IMG/VR virus record: IMGVR_UViG_3300031565_000018
Location: 23 to 64,022 of that record
DNA length: 64,000 nucleotides
Direction: 5' to 3' (one strand)
Source of the DNA: a virus
The notes below the pieces were generated by a model. The model was not told where the DNA came from and searched no databases. It worked only from the letters and a program-made list of their open reading frames with translations. This document shows positions 5,984 through 62,511 of this stretch, one piece after another. A program made the translations under genes and the position numbers. How positions within the stretch are numbered: position 1 is the stretch's first letter; each line of letters opens with the position of its first letter.

Positions 5984-7530
5984 CTATCGAAAAACAAACC
6001 GAGTTTCTTCGTCTTGTTAACAACGAGCCATTGGTTCTCGCTGTCTCTGCACTGTCAGATTTTCTCTGGGATGACTTCGTAAGAGAGACGAGGCCTTCTG
6101 TCACATACTTAATAAACCAGTACGACTTTGTTCAGCTTTCTCGTTTCGGCAAAGAGCTCTTCGACTATCTGTACAACGGAGAGGTGACCACGCCTCTCAT
6201 CACGTTTGATGCACTAGAGAATTACTTCCGTCAGAAACAAAACGGAGACCCGGTTACTCTCCCTGAGGGTTATAAACCAGAAAACTCTCTCTGGTATGGC
6301 TTATTTGCAGACGTAATTAGCTCACCAGCATGGGAATACATTCTCGGTTTATCTGTGGGAGATCAATTCACCTCAGGTAACAATGCGGTGAATATCCTGA
6401 ATGAAATAAGTGAACTTCTTGAGGACTACATCGAGAGCAACAAGATCGATGTACAACTGATTGCAAGTGGGGGAGACAGACTTAAAAAGCTTCGCGAGGA
6501 GTTCACTCAGGCGAAGGAAAGAGGTGATGATGAGGCTGCAGCGGAGCTGCGGAAACAAGGCAAAGAGCTCGGCGCAGCTATCGAGAAAGCAGTCGACAGT
6601 GTGAAGGCAGAACTACAAACAGAGATATCAAAAGCCATGGAAGGCGTCCGAGAAGACGCGCAGGAGCTGAAAGAAGCGATGGATTCACTTGCGGGTAATC
6701 AAGAGGGTGTCGGTGGCCACGGTGATGATCTAGCGGCAAAAAAGAAACTCGCCAAAAAGCTCGCGCACAACCCGAGCATGAAACAATTCATCCAAAAACT
6801 CGGTGCACTTCGTCGGGCATGGAATGACCGCAAACGCGCCAAACGTGCAGAGTCAAACTACAGCGACATCGTTGGCGCCTCTTTCACAGATGACGTCATT
6901 CACACTTTTCCGTCCGAGTTAGCGCTCGCTGCGACCGAGCAAGGAAAAGCTCTCTTCGCCCTTAAATACTCTCAGAAAACACTCCTCACTAAAAATTACG
7001 AGGCGAAAGTAAAGGACATCTCCAAAGGACCGGTAGTTATGTACGTAGACATCAGTGGATCCATGGCTGGTGCCGCTGAACTATGGAGTAAAGCTATCGC
7101 CTACACAGTCGCAGAGGAGTGCTTGAAAGAGAAGAGAGATGTTCAAATACACCTCTTCGACACCAAGATTCAAAAGACAGTCGACCTAACAGCAGGAGAC
7201 CCCAGTAACGCCGAAGAGCTTCTGAACTTCATCCTCACCTGGGTCACTCACGGGGGCACGTCTTTTGCAGAGGTAATTAACCACGCTCTAACAAAAGCTG
7301 CTATCGATTACAAAACGGACGTACTGATGATCACCGATGGAGATGCTACTGTCCCCGATGCTTTTATCCGCCGTTTAAATAGATTCAAAGAAGATAGAGA
7401 TCTGCAGTGGAACAGCTTCTGTATCGGGACAAAGGCCAAGGCACTCAAGGAGTTCAGTGATAACGTCCAGCTCGTGGACATCCTGAACGACCCGTCCAGT
7501 GCGGGTCTGTTCCAAGATGCTCTACGTTGA
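5980..7530 (+). CDS. ViaA-like von Willebrand A domain protein
   Basis: MIDAS motif DISGSM, GGT and ITDG in the C-terminal domain; ATGA overlap with the AAA gene. Confidence 0.87.
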   Translation: MTIEKQTEFLRLVNNEPLVLAVSALSDFLWDDFVRETRPSVTYLINQYDFVQLSRFGKELFDYLYNGEVTTPLITFDALENYFRQKQNGDPVTLPEGYKPENSLWYGLFADVISSPAWEYILGLSVGDQFTSGNNAVNILNEISELLEDYIESNKIDVQLIASGGDRLKKLREEFTQAKERGDDEAAAELRKQGKELGAAIEKAVDSVKAELQTEISKAMEGVREDAQELKEAMDSLAGNQEGVGGHGDDLAAKKKLAKKLAHNPSMKQFIQKLGALRRAWNDRKRAKRAESNYSDIVGASFTDDVIHTFPSELALAATEQGKALFALKYSQKTLLTKNYEAKVKDISKGPVVMYVDISGSMAGAAELWSKAIAYTVAEECLKEKRDVQIHLFDTKIQKTVDLTAGDPSNAEELLNFILTWVTHGGTSFAEVINHALTKAAIDYKTDVLMITDGDATVPDAFIRRLNRFKEDRDLQWNSFCIGTKAKALKEFSDNVQLVDILNDPSSAGLFQDALR

Positions 7531-7555
7531 AAATTGTTTCTAGGAAGCATTCCCT

Positions 7556-7783
7556 GTGCTCAGCAAACAACAAAAAGACAACAGAGACATACAAGAGATC
7601 ATAGAGTTTTATGAATATGAGATAGCACAGCTTGCACGTGAGGTAAAACTGGGCGACTTATGGCTCGGCGACGATGGCAAACTGCGGATCTGCAATAAGA
7701 TCTTCGGAGGGGAGCGCTTCTGGACGGAAGTTAATAACGATGGAACGCTTAGCGATAAGCCACGAGGTCTCCAGGATCCTTAA
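7556..7783 (+). CDS. Hypothetical protein
   Basis: 75-aa ORF in operon orientation. Confidence 0.55.
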   Translation: MLSKQQKDNRDIQEIIEFYEYEIAQLAREVKLGDLWLGDDGKLRICNKIFGGERFWTEVNNDGTLSDKPRGLQDP

Positions 7784-52142: not shown

Positions 52143-53258
52143 TTAAGCGTCGAAAGAGTAACCAACGGTGACGAAGTCAGCGTTCAGGAGTTCGAAACCT
52201 GCGTACAGGCTCCAAATCATCATGATGAAGCGGCTGAAATCGTCGTTGTTGTTGAGGAGCACCTGGGCATTGTTGCCACCGATGCCAACGCCAACGGCCT
52301 GGGGACCAAAGAAGATACCGACAGCTGCGTTGTAATCAGCGGCGGTAGCAGCGATGGTCGCGTTCTGGGTTTGGGTAGGCATGTTGGTCGATTCGAAGAA
52401 TCGCACGCCTTCAAACACGAAGCCGGTGGGCATGATGGGCTCGCCAGCCACGAAGGTGGCTTGACCGAAGCCCTGACCCATGTACAGCGCAGCGTTGGGC
52501 TGCATGCCGGACATGAGGGGGTTGATCTGACCGTTGCCAGGGTAACGAGCAACTTCGCGGAAGTCGCTGTTCTGACGCAGGTGCATCAGGAAGGTGGGAT
52601 CGCAAACGCAGCGATAGAAACCATCCTGGAAGGTGGGGGTGTTCCGCTTACGCAGGGACTTGACCACGCGGAGGAGGTCGTCCTTGACGTCGAACTTAGC
52701 TTGCTCGGCGTTGGTGTAAGTCAGAGCACCGGTAGCCAGATCGCCGGGGAAGTAGTAACCACCCTGGGAATCAGTGGCTTGACCCTTGGAGACAGCTTTC
52801 AGGAGTTCGTTGATGAACACCCGATCACGCCACCGACGGTAGTCATCCAGCAGAGTCAGGCTGCCGATGGACTGGTGGAAGGTGGTGAGGTTGCCGGTGT
52901 CCAGCAGAAGACGCTGGGCGGTGATCAGAGTCTCGCGAGCAATCTTAAAGGTGCTCGGCTGAGTCGGATCGGACGGGTCGGCAGGTCCGGTGTACTCCTT
53001 AAGAGTAACCAGAACCTTGTCTTTCACGATATTGCGGCTGTTTGCAGTACCGATGGTCTGCTCAGCAGTGCGCTCGCGAGATTCTTTGGAGCCGGGGTTA
53101 CCGAAGAAGCGGTAACGATCCAGTTGTACAGTCTGGCCGGGTTGCTTCGAGAAATCGTGAACAACCACAGGCTCCGCAGCCATCTCAACGATGTATGCGG
53201 GGTGCGGACGGTACAGTTCAGCACCAAGAATCTTCGGAAAATCATTATCGATAAACAT
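52143..53258 (-). CDS. Major capsid protein
   Basis: 371 aa; DFSKQPGQTVQL, EYTGP, VCDP, FEGVRFFES patterns typical of HK97-fold N4-gp56-like MCPs; strongest codon bias in the window; position. Confidence 0.82.
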   Translation of the reverse strand: MFIDNDFPKILGAELYRPHPAYIVEMAAEPVVVHDFSKQPGQTVQLDRYRFFGNPGSKESRERTAEQTIGTANSRNIVKDKVLVTLKEYTGPADPSDPTQPSTFKIARETLITAQRLLLDTGNLTTFHQSIGSLTLLDDYRRWRDRVFINELLKAVSKGQATDSQGGYYFPGDLATGALTYTNAEQAKFDVKDDLLRVVKSLRKRNTPTFQDGFYRCVCDPTFLMHLRQNSDFREVARYPGNGQINPLMSGMQPNAALYMGQGFGQATFVAGEPIMPTGFVFEGVRFFESTNMPTQTQNATIAATAADYNAAVGIFFGPQAVGVGIGGNNAQVLLNNNDDFSRFIMMIWSLYAGFELLNADFVTVGYSFDA

Positions 53259-53342: not shown

Positions 53343-54158
53343 TTAGACACTTTTTTGGTTTGAACTATTAACTCCAGGGCTAAAGGTGCGCACCATGTTC
53401 CTGACCCCCTCGCCCAGGACACCGTATACAGAACCATAGTTCGGAACATATCGCGTGGACTTACCTCTGTAAGAGCTTCTTGTAACCGTGCTCATAGAGC
53501 CCGGCACATCGCTTCGAACTGACTCAACGTAGGTCTTGCAATAAGCGGGGTAGTTGTATTGCCATGCGGCTCTAGACCCCGAAGTATCGTTCGTCGGGTT
53601 AGTGAGCATGGGGGTCTTAACACGCTCGTAAGACCCCGGTCCTCCTGTGATACCTCCAGTACTAGATGTGTTATCTGAAGGTGTCTGAAAAGGTGCGTAA
53701 TTTTGGTTGTCCGGCACACTGCCGCCGAACCAAGTGTACGCACCAAAATTTCTCAGACCTGGCTGTGGGCCTAGAGCAGTCTGAACTGTACGACCGGCAA
53801 CGCTATACAAACCTTGCGCTCTAAAACCGTCGTAGACAGTGAGGAGACCTGACGCAGCCGCATAAGAGTTGTTGTAATCAGTCCAATAACCAGATACAGC
53901 AGGAGGGACAAAGCGCCATTCAGTATTTAAAAACCCACTGATATTTGGGGGACCTACAGGAATATTTCCGAAATCTGCCCCCTCGTCGTTTACCCCATAC
54001 CAAGTCTGTTTGAGCCCACTCGGCGTTACGTAACCACTCGACACAACTACATAGGTATCCCTGACATCCAAGTTGTCAGCCGTCCTCTGGGGACCTGACT
54101 GAATACGGTGATACAGGTTTTTATCGTATTTCCAGTTTGTTTGAGGCGTGTAACTCAT
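53343..54158 (-). CDS. Hypothetical Tyr/Gly/Ser-rich virion protein
   Basis: 271-aa ORF upstream of the MCP. Confidence 0.65.
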   Translation of the reverse strand: MSYTPQTNWKYDKNLYHRIQSGPQRTADNLDVRDTYVVVSSGYVTPSGLKQTWYGVNDEGADFGNIPVGPPNISGFLNTEWRFVPPAVSGYWTDYNNSYAAASGLLTVYDGFRAQGLYSVAGRTVQTALGPQPGLRNFGAYTWFGGSVPDNQNYAPFQTPSDNTSSTGGITGGPGSYERVKTPMLTNPTNDTSGSRAAWQYNYPAYCKTYVESVRSDVPGSMSTVTRSSYRGKSTRYVPNYGSVYGVLGEGVRNMVRTFSPGVNSSNQKSV

Positions 54159-54219: not shown

Positions 54220-54582
54220 ATGCAGCTACCAGCTGAAGAGACTGTGTCTTACTTTCTGGCAGACCCAGAGATGGCAGCAGCCTCGTTTTCAGGCTCTGTC
54301 ACAGATGTCCTAGTGCACCCTCAAAAATTCAAAAAATTTCTTCCTTACTTAATTAAAACCGTCTTGGCTGGGTACTTACTCGCTACCTATGTAAGTCCCG
54401 CTATAGTTGAAAAATTCAAGCTGACACAAAAAGAGGCCTTAGCGGCCTCCTTCGTGGTTGGTTATGCAGGTATTCGAATTCTTAACCATCTGGAGAGAGT
54501 CGCAGAAGAAGAACTCAAAAAAAGAATGGGTTCTAGAGCTCAGTCAATGACCAAGGATTCATCAAACGAGTCGGAAGACTGA
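54220..54582 (+). CDS. Membrane protein, holin-like
   Basis: TVLAGYLLATYVSPAI and ASFVVGYAGIRIL hydrophobic helices; charged C-terminus. Confidence 0.58.
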   Translation: MQLPAEETVSYFLADPEMAAASFSGSVTDVLVHPQKFKKFLPYLIKTVLAGYLLATYVSPAIVEKFKLTQKEALAASFVVGYAGIRILNHLERVAEEELKKRMGSRAQSMTKDSSNESED

Positions 54583-54714: not shown

Positions 54715-54740
54715 AAAAAACCCCTCCTTTTCAGGAGAGG
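54715..54740 (-). terminator. Intrinsic terminator after the scaffold gene
   Basis: Minus strand CCTCTCCT-GAAA-AGGAGGGG then TTTTTT. Confidence 0.8.
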
Positions 54741-54762
54741 CTGATCACCTAGTTTTTCTGAA

Positions 54763-55692
54763 TCAAGCGGCGTCCATGAACAGAAGCTTGCTACGCAGAG
54801 CTTCGGGCTGCATACCGCTGAGATAACGCCAGGCGTTCTCAGGGCTGCGGTTCATGACATCGCTGAATTGCTCCCACTGGTGTTGAGGAGCTGCACCCTG
54901 CTGCTGACCACCAACGTTGGCGGGAGGGGCAGGCATGTCGTACTGCGGCTTATAAGCCGCAGGAGCTTGCTGAGCCACAGGTGCTTCATCGATATCGACG
55001 GGAACGACTTCGGTGAAGAAACGATCGGTGTAATTAGCGAGATGATCCGGGCTAGTCAGGATCGTCTGCATGGCGTTGTGACGCTCAGTCAGATTGTCAA
55101 ACTCGCCAGCCTGATTGATCAGAAGATCTTCCAGTGCGCAAGCGTACTGGTTCAGGATGCCAGGAGCCTCAATACCGAAGTGGTTAACGACGGCTTGAGT
55201 TGCGTCGCTGAGACCGTTGGCGCCGTTCGTCTGGGCCGTAGAAGCCTGAGAGGAAAGCGGGGTCTGTGAGGCGTTGGTAGACGAGGTCTGCGCTACCTGC
55301 TGTTCCTGGTAAGCCCAGGGCTGGGCCTGTAAATTCTGACTGTTCTGTTGAGTAGCCAGCTGAGGTGCCGCCTGGGAGAGCGACTGTGGTGCCTGGCTGA
55401 GGGATTGCGAGTTGACCTGGGACAGGACCCGCTCCAGGGAACCCATCGCTGCTTCCCAAGGATTGCTCGGGGAGGAGCTGGACGTTAACTGGCTGAACTG
55501 GTTGCTGGAAGAAGGGACCGTAGCCGGTGCCACCTGCGACGGCGGTTGGGCTGTAGGTACCGAAGCTACCGCCGGGGTAGCTGTTTGCGCCACCCACTGC
55601 GGGTAGGCGGTTGAGCCCTGGTCCGAGGTTGCCGCCGGGGCTGCCGCCGGGGAGACCGGGCTCGGGGTCGAAGCTTGGATCTGCTGGCTCAT
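54763..55692 (-). CDS. Putative capsid scaffolding protein
   Basis: Q/A/P/S-rich with helical C-terminus, between portal and MCP. Confidence 0.6.
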   Translation of the reverse strand: MSQQIQASTPSPVSPAAAPAATSDQGSTAYPQWVAQTATPAVASVPTAQPPSQVAPATVPSSSNQFSQLTSSSSPSNPWEAAMGSLERVLSQVNSQSLSQAPQSLSQAAPQLATQQNSQNLQAQPWAYQEQQVAQTSSTNASQTPLSSQASTAQTNGANGLSDATQAVVNHFGIEAPGILNQYACALEDLLINQAGEFDNLTERHNAMQTILTSPDHLANYTDRFFTEVVPVDIDEAPVAQQAPAAYKPQYDMPAPPANVGGQQQGAAPQHQWEQFSDVMNRSPENAWRYLSGMQPEALRSKLLFMDAA

Positions 55693-57424
55693 AGCTACCC
55701 GAGTAGGTTAATTCTTCCGCTAGGTGATCGAATGTCCTGTAAAGGAGCGGAGTGATATTCAGTCTAGGATCAGCCGCAAGCGGTTGGTTAGGCGCAAGCG
55801 GATGTGGAGACTGCAACATCTGGGATAATAATACCAGAAATTGTTGCATTGCAGATTGAGTCTGTTGCACCATGCGGAAGGGGAAACCCTTCAACATTTC
55901 AGCTCTTTCAGAGTCAGTTTTTTCGGGGAAAAGGAACTTCAGAGCTTCGACGCTGTGTACACCTAACTCCTGCAGGTTCCTGACCACGACTGACTTCTGC
56001 TGCACGTCATATGCAGTGTCCTCGTAAACATCTCCCTGATATCGGTAATCAACTTCTCGATCACCATCCTCAGGAAGACCCACCACGCCTAGTGGTACTT
56101 TGTTTTCCGCGAGAGCTTGTTTCATAACCGCATCGAGTTTTTGCTCGAAGCGCATTACGGCTCTTTGATACTTCTCGGTTGCTTCTTGATCCGCGTCATT
56201 AGCGGGCGGTTTGGGTTCTTTAAGCCCACTAGCCAGCAAAAATGACTCACGGAAGATAGTCTCCTGGTGATAAATCATCATCTCCAGAAGACGGCAGAAA
56301 CCGTAGATAAGGAAACTCTTATTTTTACGAAGTGCGGTCGCTTGGGCACGACCCATCAGACCTTTGATCTCAGTTGCCGTGGCACCCGCCGAAATAGAGA
56401 TCTCGTCAACACCGCCAAGAGCTGTACGAATTTCTTCTCGCAAAAGCAACGTGTAACGGTTCATATCACCGTTAACCGGGTCTGGCGTCATGTAACCGAC
56501 GCGATCAGACGCCTCAACGTTGGCGATGATCCGAGGAACTCGGAGACCACCGCCCATAGCAGTGCCAAAAGGCTCGCTTACTCGAGTAGAGGGCGAGTCC
56601 ATGCCCGCAAAACCACTCTGACTGCTGATGGTCGGGCGGAAATTGCTCTGGCTATCACCTGCTTCGACCAGATCGCTACGAGGACGAGAGCTGATGAGCG
56701 TGGGGTTACCGAAAAACTCGATATTTTTGGCGATATTGCGAGTCAGTTGGTCATGAAGCACGATCTGCTCCATGAAGGGGTCGAATTCACCCTCACCTTC
56801 CGTCCCACTTGCGCTGGGTTTGTTTAAAACCTCCACAGCGGGGATAAACCCAAGCGTATTGGGGCGATTTTTGGCTGGAGTTAGAACAGAACCCGGTTCT
56901 AAGTCGAAACTAAGCTCTGTATCAGTCTCAATCTCACTAATTGTTTCGGCAGTAATAGAAAGTCGGACGTATCGCTTGTTTTGACCGGACGTAGTGCTCG
57001 GTAAACCAAGGCTACCCGCCTTAACCTTGTAGCTATAGATAATGATGACTTCTTCGACCTCACCATTCAGGTCGTGATAGACCCGGTACTGGTTCTTGTT
57101 GAAGAAATAGATTTGATATTTGAGTTTTGCGTCTGGCCGAAAGTAAAAAAGACCGCAACCGTCGATTAAAAAGTTCCGAATAATCGCTGGAAAGCGAATA
57201 TCGATCTTATTGAGGGTAATTACATCGTCGAGAAACCTAGTTCGACTCTTATAGGTGTCTTGATCGCAGTAAAAAGTCAGACCCTTCTTGATCATCAAGA
57301 GGACCATCTGCTGAATATGACTCAGCACAACCATCGTGGACGATTGGCTGCTTCGATCCTGAGTGCGAGCCGCCTCAAGAATCTCTGAAAACCTATTTCG
57401 AGTATCTGCGGAGGCGGTCGACAT
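55184..57424 (-). CDS. Portal protein with long Gly/Pro-rich C-terminal extension
   Basis: Size and position between terminase and scaffold/MCP; GFIPAVEV.N...EGEF pattern of portals. Confidence 0.75.
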   Translation of the reverse strand: MSTASADTRNRFSEILEAARTQDRSSQSSTMVVLSHIQQMVLLMIKKGLTFYCDQDTYKSRTRFLDDVITLNKIDIRFPAIIRNFLIDGCGLFYFRPDAKLKYQIYFFNKNQYRVYHDLNGEVEEVIIIYSYKVKAGSLGLPSTTSGQNKRYVRLSITAETISEIETDTELSFDLEPGSVLTPAKNRPNTLGFIPAVEVLNKPSASGTEGEGEFDPFMEQIVLHDQLTRNIAKNIEFFGNPTLISSRPRSDLVEAGDSQSNFRPTISSQSGFAGMDSPSTRVSEPFGTAMGGGLRVPRIIANVEASDRVGYMTPDPVNGDMNRYTLLLREEIRTALGGVDEISISAGATATEIKGLMGRAQATALRKNKSFLIYGFCRLLEMMIYHQETIFRESFLLASGLKEPKPPANDADQEATEKYQRAVMRFEQKLDAVMKQALAENKVPLGVVGLPEDGDREVDYRYQGDVYEDTAYDVQQKSVVVRNLQELGVHSVEALKFLFPEKTDSERAEMLKGFPFRMVQQTQSAMQQFLVLLSQMLQSPHPLAPNQPLAADPRLNITPLLYRTFDHLAEELTYSGSYEPADPSFDPEPGLPGGSPGGNLGPGLNRLPAVGGANSYPGGSFGTYSPTAVAGGTGYGPFFQQPVQPVNVQLLPEQSLGSSDGFPGAGPVPGQLAIPQPGTTVALPGGTSAGYSTEQSEFTGPALGLPGTAGSADLVYQRLTDPAFLSGFYGPDERRQRSQRRNSSRR

Positions 57425-60987: not shown

Positions 60988-62511
60988 TCAGTACTCCGTG
61001 TGGTAGTTACCACGGCGCTGCAGGAAACACACGAGGTGTGTATAAGCGTCAAGCAAGTCGTCGTGAGAGGTGGCACCGATGTTAATAATCTGATCAAAGA
61101 GCTGATCAAATCTTCGAAACCGGTTGAAGACCACCTTCTTGTTCTCCAGAAGCCCAAGGGTACCCCTGAACCGAGCGATCTTGTCTCCTCTGAAGCCTTT
61201 CACTTCATGAATGTGAAGATTCCCAAGGCCCCACTCGTTCAACATCACTCGTTTTAGATCTGCTGCAAGCGATGCTTGGTAAGCCACGGACTCAACCACA
61301 AGGCTGCAGGTGGAATACGTAGGGAAGTACTGCCCTTCAGTGTTTTCTTGAAGAATCCCCCACTCAATAAGCATCTTGCACAAAAGATCGATCTTCTCAA
61401 GGTTCCCAATCGATCGAACCTGATGGGCATCAATGATGTAGTACTGATCTTTGACTCTCCCTCCAAGAACAAAAGCGGTGTAATCAGAGGTTTCGTTCTT
61501 ACTCGCTGAGAGGTCGATTCCGACAGCAAGAGAATCAAACTCCGTAACAACATCTCCCTTCACCAGGAGATCTGGCGAAAGGATCAGATCCGAAGTCATC
61601 ACTGGTTGCTGCTGGTACTGGAAGGCGAATGCCACGGGGTCCAGCTCCTTCTGCCCGAGCAAGTACTCAACACTCCACTGCTCAGGCCAATAACTCACAG
61701 CCTCACCAGCGTTGTCATATGTAAGTGCTTCCTGCTGAACCTGCTTCCAGCCCTTCTCAGGCACGAACATCGTTTTATGGATGTCGAGGGGGTGGAATCG
61801 AGTACCTAGGCAGATAGCTCGACCACCTTCAAAAATAATCGGAGCGATAACCGAGCTCCAATTACCGTTCATCTCCTCCCTAATCGAAGGGTTTTTAATG
61901 TCAGTGCTCGATTTAATAGGGTCATCCACGATGACCAAGTGGGCACGTTTCGACGTGATCGAGCCTCGAAGACCTGTTGCTCGGAGGGTAAATTCTTCAT
62001 CGCCCACTCGGCTGATGCCTGCGTAGTCGAAATCGATCGACCAACCAATATCCGACTGCATGCCAGCACGCAGTTGAACCTTTGGGAAGATTTTCTTAAA
62101 TGTTGCAGAGTCGATGATCTGCTTAATAATTCGACTCTTCGGAATTGCTGTAGCGATGTTGTATGAGCAGTAAATGATCTGGAGCGGAAGGCCAGCAGTT
62201 GTATGCCTACCGATAATCCAGGCAGTGAACATATTAAGCACCGTGGACTTTGCAGAGCCTCGTGGAGCAAGGATGTCCAGATTGGAGCCTGCAATATCTA
62301 GTAAGTATCTATTGCTCTCACCTGTAATCAAATGCTTGTGCCACTCCAGCATATGAGCTGCAGGAGCTTTATCCATAATGGTACAGAACGTATGGAAGTC
62401 CTGTGATGCTCTAGTAAATATAGTATCTAACTCAGGTGCATCTGACTCAACAGCCTTAATAGCTCTAAGTTTTAGAGCACGTCGATACGCAAAACTCTCT
62501 CTACTCGGCAT
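60988..62511 (-). CDS. terL: Terminase large subunit
   Basis: Walker A APRGSAKST, Walker B LVIVDD, GTRFH, nuclease GIDLS...DYTA...HDDLLDA. Confidence 0.93.
   Translation of the reverse strand: MPSRESFAYRRALKLRAIKAVESDAPELDTIFTRASQDFHTFCTIMDKAPAAHMLEWHKHLITGESNRYLLDIAGSNLDILAPRGSAKSTVLNMFTAWIIGRHTTAGLPLQIIYCSYNIATAIPKSRIIKQIIDSATFKKIFPKVQLRAGMQSDIGWSIDFDYAGISRVGDEEFTLRATGLRGSITSKRAHLVIVDDPIKSSTDIKNPSIREEMNGNWSSVIAPIIFEGGRAICLGTRFHPLDIHKTMFVPEKGWKQVQQEALTYDNAGEAVSYWPEQWSVEYLLGQKELDPVAFAFQYQQQPVMTSDLILSPDLLVKGDVVTEFDSLAVGIDLSASKNETSDYTAFVLGGRVKDQYYIIDAHQVRSIGNLEKIDLLCKMLIEWGILQENTEGQYFPTYSTCSLVVESVAYQASLAADLKRVMLNEWGLGNLHIHEVKGFRGDKIARFRGTLGLLENKKVVFNRFRRFDQLFDQIINIGATSHDDLLDAYTHLVCFLQRRGNYHTEY

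Follow-up and report, generated by a model that had tools for sequence, protein, structure and literature searches.

A 509-nt out-of-frame overlap between the portal-like gene and the scaffold-position gene of an S-EIV1-like cyanophage contig

The analysis concerned a 64-kb stretch of DNA (hereafter the window), which accounted for the greater part of a 66,477-bp contig from an uncultured S-EIV1-like cyanophage. On the minus strand of the window, a portal-like open reading frame (ORF) of 746 aa (57424..55184) was followed by an ORF of 309 aa at the position of a scaffold gene (55692..54763), and the two had 509 nt in common (55184-55692). Based on comparisons of sequences, it was concluded with a probability of about 0.88 that these genes form a genuine and ancient overprinted pair, in which both frames are coding and only flexible regions of the two proteins overlap. 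The overlap had been proposed in the initial annotation and its coordinates were confirmed; since the distance between the two starts (57424-55692) was 1732, or 3x577+1, the scaffold-position ORF lay in the +1 frame relative to the portal, as had been claimed. The four motif islands named in that annotation were also all found, and they were kept in relatives. The main features were as follows:

55184..57424, minus strand: portal gene; core of approximately residues 1-577 and a Gly/Pro-rich tail (578-746)
54763..55692, minus strand: scaffold-position gene; +1 frame relative to the portal, between the portal and the major capsid protein (MCP) genes, kept in relatives
55184..55692, minus strand: dual-coded stretch of 509 nt; GC content of 61-63% vs. 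~48% in the flanks
55690..55692, minus strand: scaffold ATG; inside the portal codons (..AGC TAT GAG..), where the portal core ends

Both ends of the overlap coincided with domain boundaries of the two proteins. In the clades in which the scaffold start was inspected, it was no more than a few codons away from the conserved motif that closes the portal core, and in the window the portal stop (55184-55186) was found two bases before the conserved C-terminal domain of the scaffold-position protein, the first residue of which was at 55182. The overlapped halves of both proteins were predicted by AlphaFold2 (AF2) to be disordered except for short helices. The portal tail contained 18% G and 14% P, and the N-terminal half of the scaffold-position protein contained 19% S, 17% Q and 17% A.

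The following course of expression was proposed. Ribosomes starting at the portal ATG would read on to 55184, resulting in a folded core of ~577 aa with a flexible tail of ~170 aa, which would be Gly/Pro-rich, carry a few short conserved motifs and end with a basic cluster. Other ribosomes would start at the invariant ATG at 55692, inside the portal ORF where the core ends, and the +1 reading of the same 509 nt would yield an N-terminal half of the next protein that is flexible and rich in Ser, Gln, Ala and Pro. This half would contain the motifs YPQWV, NPWE with a short helix, and QPWAYQ, and the helical C-terminal domain would begin at the portal stop. Both products are presumably made in infected cells. 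The portal tail may be directed into the capsid interior by analogy with T7 and P22, in which the portal C-termini point that way. The limitation of the overlap to change-tolerant regions of both proteins is probably the reason why it has been kept since before the lineages split to 26-38% portal identity.

Conservation and age of the double reading frame

A blastn search against the phage collection gave no match. By using tblastn, Synechococcus phage S-EIVl was found as the only cultured relative (portal identity of 47%), and its layout was alike: the portal had 767 aa and the +1 ORF 325 aa, and 554 nt were shared. Among the complete loci in IMG/VR, both ORFs were open in 77 of 77 belonging to the window's clade (overlap of 488-515 nt), in 79 of 79 of the S-EIVl clade (554-641 nt) and in both members, L163 and L238, of a third clade with portal cores 36-42% identical (500 nt). 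Further loci of the S-EIVl clade all agreed. The conservation of the double ORF, which had been put forward as a check, was thus observed in the first two clades for all 173 distinct portal sequences, each having the +1 ORF and an overlap of 488-692 nt; in the window's and S-EIVl clades the frame was always +1, and the length differences were always multiples of three.

The same arrangement was detected in genome assemblies and metagenome-assembled genomes (MAGs) with portal cores 26-51% identical to that of the window, among them Nodosilinea nodulosa PCC 7104 and assemblies of Leptolyngbya, Chroococcidiopsis and Aetokthonos. Both frames were open in 12 of 12 complete loci, and the overlap counted from the first ATG was 353-683 nt in 11 loci. 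In every such locus the +1 ORF opened where the portal core ended and ran past the portal stop. Hence, a portal frame that stopped right after the core was encountered neither in the 173 relatives nor in the third clade or the 12 assembly loci.

The +1 product of the third clade was homologous to the scaffold-like family (hhalign probability of 98.9%), and the NPW motif with its helix was kept across the three clades. The hidden Markov model of the scaffold-position protein matched 10 of the 12 assembly loci with E-values from 1e-17 to 1e-51. The +1 ORFs of L250 and L251 had no detectable relation to the scaffold profile and were weakly related to each other.

To estimate the age of the overlap, the portal core was compared with 1.8 billion representative proteins, and 263 homologues were found. 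Most of them were 690-840 aa long, which indicated that the tails were present. Tails at ~28-40% identity kept the IPxPG[ST]T-type motif, the ..DL..hydrophobic block and, usually, the basic end. A distant group of homologues of 560-625 aa had short or no tails; in the short-tail relative L236, the overlap with the +1 ORF was at most 167 nt and no homology of that ORF to the scaffold family was detectable. Single-protein scans of viral contigs with four distant portals (P0070, P0057, P0045 and P0023) found nothing. It was concluded that the overlap arose before at least three clades diverged, and it is probably older than the split of the whole tailed portal family.

Some of the assembly loci were placed within cellular genomes. 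The module of L239 (NZ_JH976538.1, Nodosilinea nodulosa PCC 7104) was located at 737-745 kb of a 793-kb scaffold, and portal/scaffold modules were also found within the cyanobacterial assemblies L251 (Aetokthonos hydrillicola CCALA 1050), L244 and L250. This suggests that filamentous cyanobacteria carry S-EIV1-like phages as prophages or as integrated remnants. Other loci with portals ~45-51% identical were found in MAGs labelled as a Methanobacteriota archaeon (L240, L242, L243 and L245) or in various bacterial MAGs (L241 and L247-L249). The placement of these phage contigs in archaeal or heterotrophic bacterial MAGs is most likely a binning artefact and not a host range.

Substitution patterns and codon usage in the two frames

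The double ORF was evaluated by resampling, in which one protein was kept fixed and the synonymous codons were redrawn from the phage's own usage (3000 draws). With the scaffold-position protein fixed, 6.6-8.1 stops were expected in the portal frame, and this frame was open in 0 of 3000 draws for the window (mean of 8.1 stops) and in 1 of 3000 draws for S-EIVl. When the portal tail was kept instead, 4-5% of the draws left the scaffold frame open (4% in the window). A chance origin of the double ORF was excluded, since such were the outcomes of resampling and yet both frames were open in all 173 relatives.

The substitution rates were expressed as Fitch changes per site on trees built from the non-overlapping parts. 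In the portal core, portal positions 1/2/3 had rates of 2.2/0.9/11.4 in the window's clade and 2.24/0.99/10.95 in the S-EIVl clade. The rates of 3.2/2.3/11.5 and 2.20/1.36/9.21, respectively, were obtained for scaffold positions 1/2/3 in the non-overlapping part of the scaffold-position gene, and those of 3.6/1.7/4.3 and 4.81/1.94/2.79 for portal positions 1/2/3 in the overlap. Portal position 1 corresponds to position 3 of the scaffold frame, and the latter therefore changed in the overlap at a rate of 3.6 for the window's clade and ~4.8 for the S-EIVl clade (4.81 when taken from the portal-frame alignment and 4.86 from the scaffold-frame alignment). The silent position of each frame was two to four times slower where a change would alter the amino acid of the other frame (Mann-Whitney p from 1e-13 to 1e-55 across the comparisons; 1e-39 and 9e-31 in the window's clade), and this suppression persisted at 4-fold degenerate codons with a conserved amino acid. 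It was not explained by a lower overall divergence, because portal first positions were faster in the overlap than in the core. The synonymous-site constraint, another of the proposed checks, was therefore seen as a suppression of third positions in both frames and in two independent clades.

The constraint formed a mosaic when scored in eight-codon windows. The first ~16 codons of the overlap were nearly invariant at all three positions. The constraint alternated segment by segment, some segments being scaffold-held and others portal-held, and the alternation occurred at homologous places in the window's and S-EIVl clades. The segments of the window and the basic end of the tail were as follows:

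55582..55623, minus strand: scaffold-held segment AYPQWV; scaffold third-position rate of 4.1-6.3 vs. second-position rate of 0.3-1.3, with the portal frame free to vary
55481..55525, minus strand: portal-held segment GYGPFFQQP; portal third-position rate of 5.9-8.3 vs. first-position rate of 0.25-1.75
55414..55467, minus strand: scaffold-held NPWE with a predicted helix (scaffold residues 76-93); portal first-position rate of 5.4-7.1 vs. third-position rate of 0-1.7
55373..55405, minus strand: portal-held IPxPG[ST]T motif (IPQPGTTV here); third-position rate of 7.5 vs. first-position rate of 2.4, with the motif also seen in tails of homologues down to ~28-32% identity
55235..55357, minus strand: C-terminal block GYSTEQ.. 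GSADL .. FLSGFYG, mostly portal-held; encloses the QPWAYQ island
55306-55323, minus strand: scaffold-frame QPWAYQ island within the portal-held block
55187..55225, minus strand: basic portal C-terminus; seven of 13 residues are Arg, variable in sequence, basic in most relatives

According to the genetic code, the portal-frame Q-S-L-G run at the NPWE site would be a shadow that is largely set by the scaffold codons. As judged from the alignments, both frames were shown to be under purifying selection, with the constraint alternating between them. The initial annotation had held that both disordered regions are under selection and that their evolution is tied; this view was sustained by the suppressed third positions, the mosaic, the family-wide double ORF and the invariant start with its Shine-Dalgarno motif.

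It could be supposed that only the scaffold frame matters, the portal tail being a tolerated and functionless appendage from which stops are absent by luck. The tail is indeed predicted to be disordered and is Gly/Pro-rich, and a GC-rich stretch holds few stops, so that even the +2 frame was open for 112-137 codons in some loci. However, luck of this kind was met in at most 1 of 3000 resamplings, and the portal-constrained segments had third-position rates of 7-8 vs. first-position rates of 0.25-2.6. The scaffold-synonymous sites were 2-3 times slower than outside the overlap, and the tail motifs IPxPG[ST]T and ..DL..hydrophobic block recurred at 28-40% identity. A functionless tail was thus regarded as very unlikely. 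The open +2 frame, which lacked an ATG and was seen in L008, L009, L012, L040 and others, most likely results as a by-product from the high GC content of the dual-coded stretch.

The low synonymous rates might also be attributed to a nucleotide-level element, such as an RNA structure or packaging or regulatory DNA, in place of a second frame. It was in line with this proposal that ~170 nt before the scaffold ATG were constrained where a second ORF was absent. However, the rates in the overlap had a three-base periodicity, and the protein motifs were precisely where the constraint changed over from first to third positions or back; such motifs of both frames persisted across clades with diverged DNA. 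Moreover, the overlap RNA folded no better than shuffled sequences (z of -0.83) and matched no Rfam family. An element of this type was considered to be hardly credible as the cause of the low rates in the overlap.

The codon usage was less informative. In the initial annotation, the scaffold frame was described as atypical within the overlap and the portal frame as using the preferred codons of the phage. The first part held, as CCG accounted for 11 of 17 Pro codons in the scaffold frame vs. 17% genome-wide. The second part did not, since the portal frame was atypical as well: it used CCA in 12 of 24 and GGC in 16 of 31 cases, when the genome prefers CCT and GGT. The deviation from the genome usage was about equal in both frames (z of -1.4 and -1.6), and codon usage therefore gave no clue as to which frame is older.

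Start of the scaffold-position gene and identity of the two proteins

The 14 nt ending with the scaffold ATG were nearly invariant, and a weak Shine-Dalgarno-like motif, GGGT, was present in the window's clade. An invariant AAGGAG was found seven bases 5' of the ATG in the S-EIVl clade, and AAGGAA preceded the start in L163. M1 was the sole invariant Met of the scaffold N-terminal half (34 of 34 sequences from two clades). A start downstream of 55184 was impossible in the window, because no ATG, GTG or TTG was located near the portal stop, and the next in-frame Met after M82 was residue ~217, which was already within the conserved domain. The overlap may couple the stoichiometry of the portal and the scaffold, as was suggested in the initial annotation, but a conserved initiation region of its own points to an independent initiation of the scaffold-position gene.

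The GenBank record of S-EIVl lists a 134-aa product starting at 7324, after the portal stop (AHV82225.1), which corresponded to the last 134 codons of the +1 ORF. The conserved +1 ORF of 325 aa started from 6748 (6748-7725 in KJ410740.1, locus L001). The record most likely shortens the scaffold-position gene, because the 325-aa ORF is conserved and is preceded by the invariant AAGGAG. The same annotation error is to be expected from gene callers across hundreds of metagenomic relatives.

Such an annotation would be correct if only the portal frame mattered and the scaffold-like protein started near or after the portal stop, the upstream part of the +1 ORF being a by-product; the 4-5% chance of an open +1 frame, given the portal tail, could also be counted for this. 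However, the window had no in-frame start codon of the three types at the equivalent place, M1 was invariant in all 34 sequences, and the AAGGAG was likewise invariant upstream of it in the S-EIVl clade. Furthermore, the scaffold-held segments had scaffold second-position rates of 0-1.7 vs. third-position rates of 5-8, the portal-synonymous sites were suppressed about 2.7-4-fold, and the NPW motif with the helix was retained in all three clades. A late scaffold start was judged to be highly improbable.

Two loci from MAGs departed from the usual start. No ATG was present at the usual place of the scaffold start in L242 (~4200) and L247 (~4230), where the +1 frame was open from the core end onwards; the first ATG occurred 134 nt before the portal stop in L242 and 368 nt before it in L247. 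These loci may have a non-ATG start or an assembly error.

The frame relationship would permit a programmed frameshift as well. A +1 shift would join the portal core to the scaffold domain, and a -1 shift would join the scaffold N-terminus to the portal tail. Frameshift products are known from phage structural genes, e.g., G/GT of lambda and 10A/10B of T7. However, a slippery heptamer X_XXY_YYZ was conserved in neither frame within the window's clade and no homopolymer run of at least five was found, in agreement with the initial annotation, which reported no slippery site. Frameshifting needs only a short overlap and not ~500 nt constrained in both frames, and an independent start codon with a Shine-Dalgarno motif has been kept. 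It was considered that the overlap has little prospect of being explained in this way, with a probability as low as that of a late scaffold start.

The portal-like protein matched phrog_20475 of the PHROG database (E 2e-162) and, weakly, phrog_64 'portal protein' (E 1.5e-6, residues 62-244). The Pfam family Head-tail_con matched only 3 of 35 family members, with the best E-value of 0.086, which was below the cut-off; Pfam gave no family for either the portal or the scaffold-position protein, and a sequence search of the PDB with both profiles gave no match. In a Foldseek search with the AF2 model of the portal, nearly all of the top ~40 matches were phage portals (best E 4e-6, probability of 1.0), and the best matches included T7 gp8 and portals of T7-like cyanophages. 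As the model had a mean predicted local distance difference test (pLDDT) score of 40 and the TM-scores were 0.14-0.28, these matches were taken as a consistent lead only. Short helices were predicted by AF2 at portal residues 715-728. The TerL gene was located at 60988-62511, on the same strand upstream of the portal, and the order was the same in S-EIVl.

The minus-strand order was portal, scaffold-position gene and then the MCP gene at 52143-53258 (phrog_1357); the MCP (371 aa) was taken to be without a delta domain from its length only. The scaffold-position protein was predicted by AF2 to be mostly disordered in its N-terminal half and helical in its C-terminal half (overall pLDDT of 45), with helices at 78-94, 180-213 and 269-306 and a pLDDT of ~80 at the C-terminal end. 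The C-terminal half was acidic (isoelectric point of 4.3). The protein matched nothing in Pfam, PHROG or the PDB, and the Atlas gave only unnamed viral clusters. It is most likely a scaffolding protein, as suggested by the gene order, the acidic helical C-terminal half and the lack of another candidate.

Several points weighed against a genuine overprinted pair. Both overlapped products are predictions from sequence. The parsimony counts saturate at fast sites, and the rate ratios are therefore approximate. The structure models had low confidence (pLDDT of 40 for the portal and 45 for the scaffold-position protein), the scaffold identity lacked sequence or fold support, and the Shine-Dalgarno-like motif GGGT was weak in the window's clade.

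Possible function, known systems and neighbouring genes

A second constrained stretch adjoined the overlap:

55693..55864, minus strand: portal-core stretch with suppressed synonymous change; not dual-coded, adjoins the scaffold ATG upstream

In both clades, all eight-codon windows of the core in which third positions had a rate below 5.5 (the mean for the core being ~11) fell within the last 170-250 nt before the scaffold ATG. These corresponded to approximately 55693-55864 on the minus strand of the window and to columns 1488-1750 of the S-EIVl clade alignment. All other frames of the stretch held stops, it matched no Rfam family, and its RNA was not unusually stable (fold z of -1.6 and -1.4). 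A promoter scan found no minus-strand site in the region. The stretch may be an internal promoter, a leader or another element of scaffold expression embedded in the portal gene.

It is conceivable, though rather doubtful, that the overlap is functional and not just tolerated. In such a case, the portal tail and the scaffold N-terminus would act together in procapsid nucleation or scaffold release, with the tail motifs and the basic end engaging the scaffold or the DNA in the shell, and the upstream stretch of ~170-250 nt would serve as an internal expression element that sets a high scaffold-to-portal ratio. If so, the locus would be a family-wide module in which a single piece of DNA encodes the assembly stoichiometry together with two disordered regions that interact.

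The overprinted pair was compared with known gene arrangements of phages. The Rz/Rz1 spanin genes of lambda and 18.5/18.7 of T7 are same-strand +1 pairs in which Rz1, of ~60 codons, is wholly embedded. The present pair resembles lambda Rz/Rz1 in belonging to a tailed double-stranded DNA (dsDNA) phage and in its strand and frame, and both Rz/Rz1 products are functional in one process. Unlike them, it comprises ~170 codons (up to ~230 in relatives), is arranged end-to-start, involves large morphogenesis genes and affects only flexible regions.

Overprinting is also known in small phages, such as A/B/K and D/E of phiX174 and the lysis gene of MS2 (reviews: PMC2992710). Common to these and to the present case are a long out-of-frame overlap, a suppressed synonymous change and disordered products. 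In contrast to their tiny genomes, in which overlaps are common, the pair described here consists of a portal and a scaffold gene and belongs to a tailed phage of ~66-80 kb.

In lambda C/Nu3, P2 gpO and Mu I/Z, protease and scaffold genes are nested in the same reading frame. As in those systems, a scaffold-type protein would be made here from an internal start in an upstream head-assembly gene, but different frames are used and two unrelated polypeptides result. The order of portal, scaffold-position gene and capsid gene is the same as in the T7 head module, i.e., 8 (portal), 9 (scaffold) and 10 (capsid). However, genes 8 and 9 of T7 have no such overlap, and the scaffold-position protein had no detectable similarity to gp9.

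To our knowledge, long out-of-frame overlaps, which are textbook cases in tiny viruses, are rare in tailed dsDNA phages. No description of an out-of-frame portal/scaffold overlap, or of this overlap in S-EIV1-like phages, was found in the literature. The overlap is unusually long and old for a tailed phage, two essential head-assembly genes sharing 0.5-0.7 kb across lineages with portal cores 26-50% identical. It offers a natural experiment in which two disordered protein regions are placed on one DNA sequence and the constraint alternates between the frames, and it draws attention to the short conserved motifs of the portal tail and to an embedded element that possibly controls scaffold expression. 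The lineage is abundant, as the S-EIV1-like group accounts for ~3% of marine cyanophage reads (PMC5332604).

The remaining observations concerned the surroundings of the scaffold-position gene. The following feature was noted past its end:

54719..54742, minus strand: terminator-like hairpin followed by a T-run; 21 nt past the scaffold stop

The hairpin faced a convergent plus-strand gene (54220-54582) with weak matches to holin families (phrog_2359, E 7e-6), which broke the run of minus-strand genes in the head module. A minus-strand ORF of 271 aa (53343-54158) without a PHROG match lay between the scaffold-position and MCP genes, and its place in S-EIVl was occupied by a different, Gly/Ala-rich ORF of 158 aa.

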